A stretch of 64,000 nt of DNA from a virus. This document shows positions 28,053 through 61,388 of the stretch, one piece after another. Position 1 is the stretch's first letter. The number at the start of each line of letters is the position of its first letter. The stretch is from the IMG/VR virus record IMGVR_UViG_3300031472_000015, positions 16,574 to 80,573 of that record. One strand, given 5' to 3'. A program made the translations under genes and the position numbers. The notes under the pieces are model-generated. The model saw nothing but the letters and a program-made list of their open reading frames with translations, ran no database searches and was not told the origin of the DNA.

Positions 28053-28337
28053 CACCCCCTGGGCGGCGGGTTGTACGCATCAGCCTGCTGCCCTATGCTT
28101 CCGGTAAGGGCAGAAGGGATAGATAGAAGGCACCTGACTGGCCAGATCACCGACCCCGGTGCGATGCAGAAGAATGAGCAGCCATAGCTTAAAGCTCAAA
28201 GCACCAAGACAACTTGGAATGTTACGGGTAGGACCAAATCCCGTTGGCGCGCCCCTTACAGGGATAAAACAGTCTGCATGGGGTCCCCCATTTTACAGAT
28301 CACAAATCTCAGGAGGTTCCCGGTGCAGCGCCAAGCC

Positions 28338-28523
28338 ATGACCCGCCGCACGCTGGTGTTCGCGGCGTTCGCGCCGAGCGCCGCCGCAGCCAGCGCCACC
28401 CTCCCATCGTGGCCGGAGTGCGGTCGCAAGCCGCGATGCAATTTCGTGCAGATCGCGCGATCGCAGGATGTGACCCGGTGCGTGCCGCCGCCGCGGGACA
28501 GCCAGGGGCGGGTGCTGTCGTAG
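28338..28523 (+). CDS. Small exported Cys-containing protein, possibly truncated
   Basis: MTRRTLVFAAFAPSAAAA leader; AGGAGG upstream. Confidence 0.35.
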   Translation: MTRRTLVFAAFAPSAAAASATLPSWPECGRKPRCNFVQIARSQDVTRCVPPPRDSQGRVLS

Positions 28524-28643
28524 GGTGGAGATTGCTGGTTGCCGGTGCGGACGGAGTGGGTCTGTCAGGTGTGCGGCAAATTAGTGCGCACAATGGATTA
28601 GGGACCTATTGCTTTGAGTAACGCGGCATGGTAGGTTCCGTGC

Positions 28644-29561
28644 ATGAACCTGATCTCCTTCATGAAGGACTACGGCACCCTTGAAGCCTGCCGGGCGCAC
28701 ATGGAAAGCGTGCGCTGGCCGGATGGTCCGGTGTGTCCGAAGTGCGGTGCGGTCGGTCATGCGGGCCGGGTTGGTCCCCGTCCCGGCATGTATCGCTGCC
28801 ACGCCTGCAAGAGCCAGTTCAGCGTCACCGTGGGCACCGCGATGGAGGGCACCCACCTGCCGCTGAACATCTGGTATCTCGCCATGTACCTGATGCTGAG
28901 CACGGCCAAGCCGATCAGCGCCATGAGCCTGTCGCGCCAGATGCAGATGCAGTACCGCACCTGCTGGCACCTGCTGCATCGGCTGCGCGCCATGATGGAA
29001 GGCGGCGGGACGCTGCCGCTGTCCGGCATCGTCGAGACGGACGAAACCTACGTCGGCGGCAAGGCCCGGAACCGGCAGAAGCATCGCCCTGACGCCACGC
29101 GGGGCCGTGGCACCGACAAGCCCATGCTGTTCGCGGCCATCGAGCGCGGCGGCGAGGCGCGCTCGATGGTGGTGCCCTCTGCTTCCATCGCCGCCATCGC
29201 ACCTGCCTTGTGGGACTGGACCGGGGGTGCTGCCACGCTGATGACGGACGAGTTGGGCGCTTACCGCTGGATCGGGCGGAAGATGGAAGCGCACCACCGC
29301 GTCAACCACAGCCAGAAGGAATACGCCCGCACCACGTCTGGCGGCTTGCGTGCCCACGTCAACACGGCGGAAGGCTTCTTCGGCCTGTTCAAGATGGCGC
29401 TGGTTGGCGTCCACCATGCCGTGTCTCCGAAGCACCTGCACCGCTACGCCACCGAGCACACCTTCCGCTACAACCGCCGGGGTCACGACGCCGCTGAGCG
29501 CATCGCGCGCTGCCTGATCGGGCGTCATGGGCGGCTGCGCCTCCGGGACCTGTTCGCGTGA
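28644..29561 (+). CDS. tnpA: IS1595 (ISXO2-like) DDE transposase
   Basis: WPDGPVCPKC...YRCHAC Zn ribbon; VETDETYVGG, TDE, HVNTAEGFFGLFK, KHL.RY..E..FRYN. Confidence 0.92.
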   Translation: MNLISFMKDYGTLEACRAHMESVRWPDGPVCPKCGAVGHAGRVGPRPGMYRCHACKSQFSVTVGTAMEGTHLPLNIWYLAMYLMLSTAKPISAMSLSRQMQMQYRTCWHLLHRLRAMMEGGGTLPLSGIVETDETYVGGKARNRQKHRPDATRGRGTDKPMLFAAIERGGEARSMVVPSASIAAIAPALWDWTGGAATLMTDELGAYRWIGRKMEAHHRVNHSQKEYARTTSGGLRAHVNTAEGFFGLFKMALVGVHHAVSPKHLHRYATEHTFRYNRRGHDAAERIARCLIGRHGRLRLRDLFA

Positions 29562-30790
29562 CGGCTGGCGTCATGCAGGCGGCGAAGGGACGCCTCTACG
29601 GCGGCGGGCTGGCTGGCGTGGCACGGACCGGCGGCCAGTGCCGGGCGGTGTGGAACCTGTTCGTTGCCGAGAATGCCGACCGCTACAAGGCGGAAGGCAA
29701 GTTCGTGTTCTACGCCGAGATGTCGGCACGGCTGCCCAAGCTGCTGAAAGAAGACCCGCGCCTCGCCGGGCTGCCGCACCGGGCGGCGCAGATGACCGTG
29801 CAGAAGCTGGACCGGGCGCTGCGGGAGTGCGGCCGCGCGCATGGCAACCGGCGCAAGGGCTTCCCGCGCTTCAAGAAATACGCTGACCGCTCGGACGCCT
29901 TCTCCTTCGTTGGGCGCGAGTGCCGCTTCGAGGCAGGGCGCGTGCGGCTGCCCAAGGTGGGATGGCTGCGCGTGCGCGGCTTGTCCTTGCCGGTAGGTGC
30001 GGACGCCAAGGTGGTCGCGGTCACGCAGGAGCCGAACGGCTGGCACGTCTCCGTCCAGTTCGAGGCCGCGCCCAAGGCGTATGCTGAGCCGACGCAGCCC
30101 ATGATCGGCATTGACGGCGGGCTGACCTACTTGGCAACGCTCAGCGACGGGACGCGGATCGCGCACCCCCGGCTGGCGCGCAAGGCGGCGAAGCGGCTGC
30201 GGCGGCTGAACAGGCAGCGCGACCGGAGGCGCAAGGGCAGCGTCAATCGGCGGCGCACCGTGGCCCGGCTGGGCCGCGCGCACCGGGCGCTGGGCGACGC
30301 CCGCAAGGACGCCATGCACAAGGCGACACGGTCGCTGGTGGACACCTACGAGGGCTTTGCCGTCGAGGATTTGAGCCTGCGCGGCTTGATGCGGACCCGC
30401 ATGGCGGGTTCGCTGGCCGACGCCGGGCTGGGAGGGTTCCTGCGGACCCTCCGCTACAAGGCCGAATGGGCAGGGCGCAGTTGGCGCGTCCACGCCCGCT
30501 TCAAGCGCAGCACGGGCGTCTGCCCGGCGACTGGCGCGGTTGGCCCCAAGCTGTCCCTCTCCGTGCGGAGTTGGGCCTGTGATAGCTGCGGCGCGGTCCA
30601 TGACCGCGACGTGGCGGCTGCTCAGGTAATCCTGAGCGGCGCGGTACCGCAAGCGTTGCGGGAACCGGCTTCGGATACGAAGCCTAAGCGAGGCGCTGCC
30701 GTACGTGGCGGGGTCCGGGTGAAAGCCAGGACTAGTCACGGCGGGCCACCTTCGAATGTTGCCGATACCCTGCTGGACGAAGCGGCGTGA
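29558..30790 (+). CDS. tnpB: TnpB RNA-guided endonuclease (IS200/IS605 OrfB family)
   Basis: KGFPRFKK; RuvC-I IGIDGG, RuvC-II VEDLSL, RuvC-III HDRDVAAA; Zn finger CPAT...CDSC; GTGA overlap with the transposase. Confidence 0.9.
   Translation: MTAGVMQAAKGRLYGGGLAGVARTGGQCRAVWNLFVAENADRYKAEGKFVFYAEMSARLPKLLKEDPRLAGLPHRAAQMTVQKLDRALRECGRAHGNRRKGFPRFKKYADRSDAFSFVGRECRFEAGRVRLPKVGWLRVRGLSLPVGADAKVVAVTQEPNGWHVSVQFEAAPKAYAEPTQPMIGIDGGLTYLATLSDGTRIAHPRLARKAAKRLRRLNRQRDRRRKGSVNRRRTVARLGRAHRALGDARKDAMHKATRSLVDTYEGFAVEDLSLRGLMRTRMAGSLADAGLGGFLRTLRYKAEWAGRSWRVHARFKRSTGVCPATGAVGPKLSLSVRSWACDSCGAVHDRDVAAAQVILSGAVPQALREPASDTKPKRGAAVRGGVRVKARTSHGGPPSNVADTLLDEAA
30644..30760 (+). ncRNA. Probable omega/re-RNA scaffold overlapping the tnpB 3' end
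   Basis: Hairpins ccgcaa-gcg-ttgcgg, ggcttcg-gata-cgaagcc and gtcc...ggac inside the low-complexity C-terminal tail, the usual position for TnpB guide scaffolds. Confidence 0.5.
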
Positions 30791-30821
30791 GTAAAAGCAA
30801 TAAGCGCGATGTGGAAGTAGC

Positions 30822-31043
30822 CTACCCCAACGCCACCCGCACCGCTCGCGCCACGGCTGCGGCGCGGGACGGGTCGCCGTGGCGCTGGGCTAAGGTGTCC
30901 AGGGCGTCCATCACATCGCCGGGCAGTTCCACCCGTCCGACACGCCGCGCTGCCACGCTGGCCCGCTTGCGCTCGGTTGCGGTCATAGGGGCCGGACCAA
31001 GGGGCGGTCGACCACGGAGACGTTTTGGAGTTTCATGAGCCAT
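30822..31043 (-). CDS. Small RHH/CopG-like DNA-binding protein
   Basis: RGRPPLG..MTATERKR...VELPGDVMDALD..A...SRAAAVARAV. Confidence 0.55.
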   Translation of the reverse strand: MAHETPKRLRGRPPLGPAPMTATERKRASVAARRVGRVELPGDVMDALDTLAQRHGDPSRAAAVARAVRVALG

Positions 31044-31957
31044 AGGCGTTCGCCGTCTTGGGCGCAGCAGGGCAAGGCATCCAGTGTGTCGGCACACCCT
31101 CCCGCACTTCACAATGCCAGTAGCCATCATCGGCTTGTGAACTTTCCTTGCCAGACAAGTCTAGCCAGGAGGAGACTGCTACCCAAAGCGGTATATCATC
31201 TAGCCAATGAGCAAGAATGACATCCGTTCCATCATGCGGCGCGCTACTGATCGGTTGCCATTCGGTCGTGCTTGAATTTGTTTCTTGACTAAGTTCTGCG
31301 CGTAATCTGGTAATTTCAGCAGCTTGGCGCTCAAGCCAATGGGCACATGACATGAGGTCGGTGTAGAACGTAGACGCACCCGCCCGCGTCATTGCCCAAG
31401 CTCGAAGCACTTCCGGGCCGGTGCGAGCGCCGCCGACATACGGAATGTCTGGCTTTCTTAAGTAGCTCGCTTTTGGCGTATGAGCAGAGTCCATCATCAC
31501 ACCGCGCCGATGGCGGCATCAACGGACGCCCGCCCATAAACCAACTCAGTCTGGCCGATCAGGATGACCGTCCAGCCGTGGATCGTCAGGACAGCTCGCA
31601 CCAAGTTGGTGCCGTAGCGCCACGGCGTTGCGTTGTGGGTTTCAACGGCAGCGCGGGCGCGGGCTTCAGTGACATAGATCATGATGCTGCATCCTGCTGG
31701 TCCTGGGTGTTGTAGAAGGCCATAGCCCGGTCAAACGGGTTGTAGCCGATGGCCGCCTTGAAGTGCTTCAGCTTCCAGTCGCCACGCTCGCCGGTCACGC
31801 CGTCGCAGAACTCGACAAGCCCGTCGTCATGCTCTGCGGCGTAACGCCATAGCTTCAAGCCATCTTCCGGGGTCTTGAGGCCGAAAGACAAGTCCTCGTG
31901 CTGATAAGAAAGCCAGTGCGCGGCGGCCGCCAGCTGTTCGCGTGCGTTCATGTCCAT
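31033..31957 (-). CDS. Antisense block: DUF551-like 31033-31500, hypotheticals 31497-31682 and 31679-31957
   Basis: WQPISSAPHDGTDV...PTHWMPCP; coupled start/stop codons. Confidence 0.6.
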
Positions 31958-60680: not shown

Positions 60681-61388
60681 ATGCCATCAGATCACAAGAA
60701 GCGACGACGCCGCATTCCCAAGCCCCTTCTGAGCTTCACGTCCAACATTCCGTGGCGTGGGCGGAAGGACGACGAGCCGATGCTGGTCGGCTATGTGCGG
60801 GTTTCCACTGACACTCAGACTAACCAGCGGCAGGTTGATGAGCTAGTGCAGGCCGGCGTCTCGCCCATCGACATCTTCGGAGATGAAGCCAGTGGCGCAA
60901 CGATGGAGCGCCCTGGCTGGGCAGCATGCGGGCGCGAGCTGCGGGAGGGCGACACGCTCGTCATCTATTCACTAGACCGGCTTTCCCGCGATCTCGTCCA
61001 CACCATGACAACGCTGCGGGCACTTAACGATCGGAACGTGACCGTGAGGGTCCTCACGATGGACTTTGACAGCCGCACTCCAATGGGACGTTTCGTGTTC
61101 AGCATGATGGCCGGGTTCGCGCAGTTTGAGCGGGACATCATCCTGGAGCGGACCCGACACGGGTTGGCGAAGGCTCGGGAGCGCGGCCGGTTTGGTGGCG
61201 CAGTCCAGAAGTACACTGATGAGGCCATCGAACGCGCCTACAAGCGGGCTGGCACGATACCAAGCGCAGCCAAGCTACTGAAGTGCAGCGAGCCAACGAT
61301 CAAGCGAGGGTTGGCTAGGATCAGGGCGAAAGAGGATGCCGAGAAGCCGAAGCGCGAGGAGGCGCAGGGCGATGCCGATCAGGGCTGA
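60681..61388 (+). CDS. Serine recombinase (resolvase/invertase) with C-terminal HTH
   Basis: GYVRVST..Q...Q; SGATMERPG; DRLSRD; AQFERDIILERT..GL..AR.RG..GG. Confidence 0.93.
   Translation: MPSDHKKRRRRIPKPLLSFTSNIPWRGRKDDEPMLVGYVRVSTDTQTNQRQVDELVQAGVSPIDIFGDEASGATMERPGWAACGRELREGDTLVIYSLDRLSRDLVHTMTTLRALNDRNVTVRVLTMDFDSRTPMGRFVFSMMAGFAQFERDIILERTRHGLAKARERGRFGGAVQKYTDEAIERAYKRAGTIPSAAKLLKCSEPTIKRGLARIRAKEDAEKPKREEAQGDADQG

Follow-up and report, generated by a model that had tools for sequence, protein, structure and literature searches.

The 64-kb window analyzed here, part of the 106.8-kb IMG/VR virus record IMGVR_UViG_3300031472_000015 of a high-GC phage, contains a single mobile element of ~2.2 kb (positions 28601-30808) in which a left inverted repeat (IRL), an IS1595-family DDE transposase gene, a gene for the RNA-guided nuclease TnpB, and a right inverted repeat (IRR) follow one another in that order. 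From the sequence comparisons below we favor, with moderate confidence, the view that this is an autonomous IS1595-family insertion sequence (IS) with ISNwi1-like ends, in which TnpB and its omega RNA form a fixed second module, the guide would be taken from flanking DNA, and the nuclease would serve homing. Coordinates are positions in the window unless a locus is given; comparison loci from genomes, metagenomes, and viral contigs are designated L###, with L151 being the contig of a sister phage.

A composite element with conserved ends

We set the ends of the element by comparison with the sister copy in L151 and ~30 related loci. The end cores, TATTGCTTT on the left and AAAGCAATA on the right, occurred at the same relative position in ~30 loci and similarity ceased exactly outside them, so the inverted repeat is not a product of chance. 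The right core plus 6 bp was found in 34 distinct right ends. The original prediction for this DNA had placed the element at 28602-30807 within a 17/21 inverted repeat. An element is indeed bounded there, with the true termini one base further out on each side, and the repeat is real and encloses both genes, albeit weaker than described: 15/22 over the terminal 22 bp and 20/26 between the arms 28607-28632 and 30777-30802. The search for other copies that had been suggested as a check thus fixed the ends at 28601 and 30808, and also revealed 8-bp target site duplications at relatives. The tnpB stop codon lies inside the right repeat as originally noted (30788-30790 within 30787-30808) and ends 18 bp short of the right terminus. 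The element has only two open reading frames (ORFs). In every compared locus, the left end has GGnnnnTATTGCTTT ~43 bp upstream of the transposase start and the right end has AAAGCAATAAnnnCG overlapping or just 3' of the tnpB stop.

The two genes travel together. Within the TnpB clade (≥55% identity), the transposase gene was directly upstream of tnpB on the same strand in 24/33 informative loci, defined as those with enough upstream sequence, and six shorter contigs show the 3' part of the transposase. Extra transposase homologues at 75-98% identity had tnpB downstream in 3/3 cases. L099 keeps the architecture, the short overlap between the genes (ATGA or GTGA, hereafter RTGA), and the GGACCTATTGAC left end at 42% transposase and 36% TnpB identity, and L275 keeps the same architecture, the overlap, and a GGACCTATTGAC-type left end at 48% transposase identity. 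Pairwise distances of the two proteins correlate (r = 0.60; 0/2000 permutations as high), and both protein families are common in metagenomes. Target duplications surround the whole unit in L084, L081, L005, L002, L137, and L153 (9 bp in L002, otherwise 8 bp), and re-pairing the swapped flanks of L060 and L061 yields a seventh. The earlier claim that TnpB was recruited by one element with terminal inverted repeats (TIRs) and a DDE transposase therefore stands, since the same conserved ends enclose both genes and duplications flank the entire unit.

Some loci carry only part of the element. Eight, including L057, L067, L069, L083, L139, and L140, have an intact tnpB and IRR without transposase or IRL. 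These solo loci lack duplications and retain 15-150 bp of the transposase 3' end as a 5'-truncation series, and therefore derive from the composite. An IRL-like sequence at the transposase 3' end, GGGACCTGTTCGC, was considered as a left end of the solo copies and rejected, as these keep varying lengths and have no duplications. In L057 (1957-3484), only ~15 bp of the transposase 3' end remain, and a tandem pair of resolvase-type serine recombinase genes lies 17 bp upstream of the solo tnpB, which is 95% identical to that of the window. In L004, IRL is next to tnpB, constituting a transposase-deleted cassette, and a CA followed by 8 bp again precedes it.

An origin by two independent adjacent insertions, in which an IS1595 element landed beside a solo TnpB element and the inverted repeat arose by chance, is extremely improbable. 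Solo tnpB copies do exist, which such an origin would need, but they keep transposase remnants, no IRR-like end is present between the genes, the architecture and ends are identical in ~30 loci from different samples, duplications flank the 2.2-kb unit as a whole, and that whole unit occupies two sites in the sister phages. The original prediction had named an absence of co-occurrence together with a chance repeat as grounds for abandoning a composite; we looked for this and instead found the pairing within the same ends in the 24 loci above.

Other variation was observed around the family. L162 and L084 compared with L137 and L152 have transposases 80-85% identical and linked TnpBs only 59-62% identical, and by this comparison the transposase and TnpB halves recombine within the family. 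In L060, L061, and L137 the flanks of two sites, with duplications ATCATCTG and AAATCGGC, are swapped between contigs, either because two copies recombined or because the repeated IS led to a chimeric assembly. Just 5' of the duplication, both sites have CGCGTTCA. A related element in L152 (649-7341) is between a large terminase gene with an intein-type insert (Hom_end) and a portal gene, and has neither duplication nor CA. In L273 (2464-5028) and L274 (1552-4116), a 55%-identical IS1595 transposase has a 4-nt overlap with a gene for a 547-aa N6/N4 DNA methyltransferase in a phage-like region (GcrA and YdaS neighbors), with IRL and CA + N8 present; IRR was looked for there and not found.

DNA searches of phage collections gave no match, and those of plasmid collections gave a single match of 99 bp at 74% identity under an annotated transposase. 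Among 401 genomes sampled from the order of Crenalkalicoccus roseus, whose genome (G001) contains locus L006, one had a tnpB of the clade.

Transposase

The transposase ORF matched Zn_ribbon_IS1595 (PF12760, E=5e-11), the full DDE_Tnp_IS1595 model (PF12762, 1-153/153, E=5e-36), and the NCBIfam IS1595 transposase NF033547 (176 bits, cut-off 75), and more than 100 homologous clusters of ~304 aa were found. These full-length matches and the genuine GTGA overlap bear out the earlier description of an intact IS1595 transposase overlapping tnpB by 4 nt. Both genes are under purifying selection, with ratios of non-synonymous to synonymous divergence (dN/dS) of 0.12-0.33. In a sample of 401 alphaproteobacterial genomes, the nearest transposases without tnpB were at most 45% identical, with 29 such loci lacking tnpB. 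We ran a TIR finder on tnpB-less IS1595 relatives (37-45% identity) as a control for the target motif; the repeats it returned were near chance and no control was obtained.

TnpB

The tnpB product matched OrfB_IS605, Cas12f1-like_TNB, and helix-turn-helix domains and the NCBIfam guided_TnpB model (206 bits), and its residues 21-379 align with ISDra2 TnpB (8H1J/8BF8, E=1e-48). The three RuvC acidic residues reported previously were recovered as D186 (30113), E270 (30365), and D351 (30608), aligned with the ISDra2 motifs GVDVG, GTEHL, and HDRD, and by sequence the protein looks functional. Three of the four zinc-finger cysteines are present in the window, L151, L057, and L058 (C322-P-A-T325, C341, C344), while other members have CPxCG; the DNA encoding C-P-A-T-G (30521-30535, residues 322-326) resembles a small compensated indel. 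Relatives keep the RTGA stop/start overlap at the same position; this conservation favors translational coupling and supports the assigned start codon, and from the overlapping codons the two genes appear to be co-transcribed.

Neither of the usual TnpB partners was found, as originally stated. The whole 106.8-kb record had no match to PF01797 for a Y1 transposase, and its sole resolvase-type serine recombinase gene (60786-61190) is ~30 kb away and unrelated to the element. With an intact catalytic triad and two ORFs only, the element also differs from CRISPR-associated transposons, which are recognized by a nuclease-dead effector with TniQ/TnsC.

Omega RNA and the position of the guide

An RNA structure overlapping the tnpB 3' end is conserved in the family. 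RNAalifold on 23 diverse copies predicted 55 consensus pairs over ~30585-30747, 25 of which have compensatory double changes, with the clearest covarying hairpins at alignment columns 94-108, 115-135, and 164-185. The window scaffold, folded as a single sequence, was more stable than all 200 shuffles (z = -3.55). Beyond codon 355, synonymous sites have diverged about half as much as in the gene body and non-synonymous change is equal or higher, a pattern that is the sequence signature of an overlapping RNA constraint. The omega-RNA-like hairpins first noticed in the tnpB tail are thus substantiated by both covariation and folding. An Rfam search returned no family match for the scaffold. A helix pairing UGUUGC (30757-30762) with the IRR core GCAAUA appeared in the single-sequence fold and was rejected, with 7/23 relatives breaking it uncompensated. 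In L272 (1800-2862), tnpB has been lost and the last ~70 nt of the scaffold region plus IRR are kept beside the transposase; from this arrangement, that part of the scaffold region may be needed for transposition.

The guide could in principle come from inside or outside the element. The original prediction had offered a fixed internal guide if the scaffold ended at GTCAC (~30738). That end did not hold up, with GTCAC within a covarying stem (columns 144-199) and the conserved scaffold continuing to GAATGTTGC (30754-30762). The 0-35 nt that follow the scaffold are homologous between copies at different sites instead of being specific to a site, and for this reason 30763-30786 is not a guide derived from the flank.

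A revised version of the internal guide retains the same composite IS and places a fixed guide in the stretch after GAATGTTGC, or in IRR itself, aimed at one conserved target such as a competitor element. The invariant, single-stranded CCACCTTCGAATGTTGC does resemble a scaffold end, and the nucleotides after it evolve faster (the window and L057 differ at ~7/25 of them, compared with 5.6% overall). We nevertheless judge this version quite unlikely. The stretch varies in length and is nearly absent in L066 and L069, in which a 16-20-nt guide would be IRR itself. Point changes accumulate in it, and it codes for the TnpB C-terminus and a small hairpin; a guide of this kind would also leave the one-sided CA described below unexplained. 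Neither 30763-30786 nor the candidate guide in the right flank had a second match in the window.

A one-sided motif at insertion sites

Insertion sites share a motif on one side. In 18/20 distinct left flanks, CA occupied positions -10/-9, immediately ahead of the 8 bp next to IRL (19/20 if the L002 duplication is taken as 9 bp; background CA frequency 0.039; P ~6e-24). The first duplicated base was A or T (W) in 20/20 left flanks and 31/34 right flanks, and no mirror-image TG followed the duplication. In both unoccupied alleles of the sister phages, the sequence found beyond IRR in the occupied counterpart is immediately preceded by TCCA. On balance, these positions incline us to read CA as a transposon-adjacent motif (TAM) for a guide that would be read beyond IRR.

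Recent movement in sister phages

L151, from a different rock-metagenome study, contains a copy of the element (L151:3440-5647) that is 99.2% identical to that of the window and occupies another site 0.9 kb away. The two copies differ at 17 positions, all transitions, 11 of which change an amino acid (six in the transposase and five in TnpB). The order and identity of the segments around the two sites are listed in Table 1. Each element copy has taken the place of a single small ORF on the minus strand, from the stop codon of that ORF to just before its ribosome-binding site; the two replaced ORFs, in X and C, show no relationship to one another and matched no family. Each phage also supplies the unoccupied allele of the other's site: C ends in GTCCA directly 5' of what is the right flank of the L151 copy, TACTCTACATCC, and the site-1 allele of L151 has CTCCA directly 5' of ATGTGGAAGTAGCC. 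Contigs of four DNA runs showed only the window and L151 arrangements, and no RNA run was listed among those containing the element. Neither IMG/VR nor matching by exact protein sequence yielded a relative of the phage that lacks the element altogether.

The window copy has no duplication (ATGGATTA on the left and ATGTGGAA on the right), and neither do those in L151 and L152. Insertion followed by transposase-mediated adjacent deletion is the simplest account of the ORF replacements in the two phages; alternatively, they may have arisen in one step, with the two ends joined at two different sites. Identity between the phages falls from 99.5-99.9% right of site 1 to at most 94.5% left of it (28310-28601 compared with L151:2081-2372), and this drop exactly at site 1 marks a recombination boundary there. 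Several blocks further to the left have also been replaced between the sister phages.

A proposed homing mechanism

In the mechanism that we favor, the DDE transposase moves the whole unit by cut-and-paste into CA-W-N7 sites, a step drawn from properties of the family and the observations above. The omega RNA would be transcribed through IRR into the flank, yielding a guide of ~16-20 nt made up of the duplicated 8 bp and the DNA next to it. Where the element is absent, the CA that immediately precedes the guide-matching sequence would then serve as the TAM, and for the window copy the predicted target is CA + ATGTGGAAGTAGCCTACC. TnpB would cut element-free alleles on co-infecting phages or sister replicons, and recombination would copy the element into them, such that homing would be additional to transposition. 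By choosing CA + N8, the transposase would keep each new insertion site cuttable, in parallel with TnpA and TnpB of IS605, in which the TnpA target site equals the TnpB TAM. Cutting of element-free alleles fits better than the re-cutting of excision sites that had also been suggested, because DDE excision already leaves a break. Homing fits the many phage and prophage settings of these elements, namely the window, L151, L137-L143, and L152, where the copy lies between the terminase and portal genes. The idea of a non-restorative form of homing that reaches co-infecting plasmids or phages has been put forward before (PMC13565253).

Several points weigh against this mechanism. The CA may be purely a target preference of the transposase. 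It is also at the left junctions of both duplication-less phage copies, which TAM selection alone would not lead one to expect; a preference for CA + N8 thus seems to reside in the joining reaction, and the motif is probably set by the transposase and not only through selection by TnpB. The absence of target duplications from the window, L151, and L152 copies is a further difficulty. Where the omega RNA would end and where its guide would lie are predictions from sequence, and the last scaffold motif is 46 nt from the flank (22-68 nt in relatives), such that IRR and the variable stretch would have to be accommodated between scaffold and guide. Two nucleotides are short for the TAM of a TnpB, and the first zinc-finger CxxC is degenerate in the sub-clade of the window TnpB. 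Finally, the benefit of TnpB is less obvious than in IS605, as cut-and-paste excision already leaves a break (PMC13565253).

Some of these points favor an alternative in which the composite IS is the same, TnpB is a passenger whose role is unlinked to the element's own sites, and CA(W) is only a transposase preference; TnpB might then be an RNA-guided nuclease or regulator serving phage or host, or a riding module. Consistent with this, CA is kept at junctions formed without duplication, an intact tnpB persists in the eight loci that lack transposase and IRL and is hence kept without mobility in cis, and the contents of the slot vary, from the methyltransferase of L273 and L274 to the deleted tnpB of L272, i.e., other cargo or none. 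Against it, relatives at only 36-48% identity still have the omega scaffold, RTGA coupling, and a tnpB immediately adjoining IRR; unlike known domesticated regulators, this TnpB retains all three catalytic residues; and a one-sided target preference would be unusual for a transposase acting on two similar ends. We consider this alternative unlikely. The preference and TAM readings of the motif would in any case be compatible, by analogy with IS605. A reading that combines them, in which CA(W) is the TAM, insertion by the DDE transposase is confined to that motif through co-evolution or physical cooperation, and homing runs from phage to phage during co-infection, is one that we advance tentatively, as a possibility short of probable.

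If CA is the TAM and the transposase is matched to it, every new copy would be armed against its own empty site, and this family would be the first in which natural alleles reveal what a cut-and-paste element gains from TnpB. PMC13565253 discusses why a DDE transposon that moves by cut-and-paste would keep an RNA-guided nuclease. The family offers a compact test case: the 2.2-kb element is autonomous, its enzymes are intact, its scaffold and ends are defined, and its candidate TAM is simple. In addition, a near-identical phage pair has the element at two sites, and the unoccupied alleles of this pair still hold the predicted TAM and target. A 410-aa ISDra2-like TnpB with a possibly short TAM may also interest genome-editing work.

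Table 1 Features of the element and of the segments compared between the window and the sister phage L151.
Feature	Position	Strand	Description
Left flank	28591..28600	+	CA (28591-28592), then the 8 bp ATGGATTA abutting IRL; without right-side duplication
IRL	28601..28622	+	GGGACC + TATTGCTTT core; kept in ~20 loci; similarity to L151 starts exactly at 28601
IS1595-family DDE transposase	28644..29561	+	305 aa; N-terminal zinc ribbon (CPKC/CHAC) and DDE domain
tnpB	29558..30790	+	410 aa; GTG start overlaps the transposase stop (GTGA)
Candidate omega-RNA scaffold	30585..30762	+	Within the tnpB 3' end; closes with invariant CCACCTTCGAATGTTGC (30746-30762)
Fast-evolving stretch, scaffold to IRR	30763..30786	+	0-35 nt in relatives; possible small hairpin; encodes the last TnpB residues
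IRR	30787..30808	+	22 bp; holds the tnpB stop codon (30788-30790); similarity stops at 30808
Right flank	30809..30828	+	ATGTGGAAGTAGCC...; would template the guide if omega-RNA transcription continues through IRR
Segment A, left flank			Window A vs L151 A': 94.5% identity
Site 1			Window: element; L151: X (193 bp)
Segment B	30809..31683		Window vs L151 B: 99.9% identity
Site 2			Window: C (31684-31956); L151: element
ORF segment C	31684..31956	-	From the 92-aa ORF 31679-31957; replaced by the element in L151
Segment D			Window vs L151: 99.5% identity

Comparison with known systems

DDE-associated TnpBs bounded by inverted repeats were described in 2023, and the novelty first attached to this pairing was overstated. 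The main text of Altae-Tran et al. 2023, PNAS (PMC10691335) describes six such branches, DDE-1 to DDE-6, all with inverted terminal repeats, with the TnpB 3' end at most 250 bp from the transposon end and with solo TnpBs within the same ends; it names IS630, for DDE-6. A 2026 review (PMC13565253) lists ISL2, IS630, and IS1031 as DDE partners associated with TnpB. IS1595 is named in neither that main text nor the review, and the PNAS supplement may already catalogue it; our literature search found no description of an IS1595 + TnpB pairing. Compared with the branches as the PNAS main text presents them, the window element shares a DDE transposase adjoining TnpB, enclosing inverted repeats, and a TnpB 3' end near the terminus, and its family likewise includes solo TnpBs with related ends. 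To these the present analysis adds the IS1595 partner, the 8-bp duplication of relatives, the one-sided CA(W), and the phage-to-phage site comparison. The element thus belongs to a known class of DDE-associated TnpB transposons, as what appears to be a new, autonomous, phage-borne member with an IS1595 partner.

Relative to ISDra2 and other IS200/IS605 elements, the nuclease is ~35-40% identical with the same RuvC triad, an RNA scaffold overlaps the ORF 3' end near the right end, and the insertion site of the transposase matches a short motif on the 5' side of the target. The window element differs in lacking a Y1 TnpA, subterminal hairpin ends, and scarless single-strand excision; its family has TIRs and duplications instead, and a 22-bp IRR separates the scaffold from the flank.

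ISNwi1-type IS1595 elements (ISfinder) share with the window element the zinc ribbon and DDE_Tnp_IS1595 transposase and ends of the form GGnnnnTATTGC, and with its relatives an 8-bp duplication. The window element is ~2.2 kb compared with ~1.1 kb for these, owing to the TnpB/omega module.

Fanzor1 in eukaryotic TIR/DDE transposons is likewise a TnpB-family nuclease within cut-and-paste elements that have TIRs and duplications, and for these the TAM has been suggested to include the 5' duplication or flank (PMC13565253). By contrast, the window element is prokaryotic or phage-borne, and its TnpB is compact, resembles that of ISDra2, and has the canonical spacing of the RuvC-II glutamate. Should CA prove to be the TAM with a transposase matched to it, the family would be a prokaryotic counterpart of the Fanzor-carrying TIR transposons.

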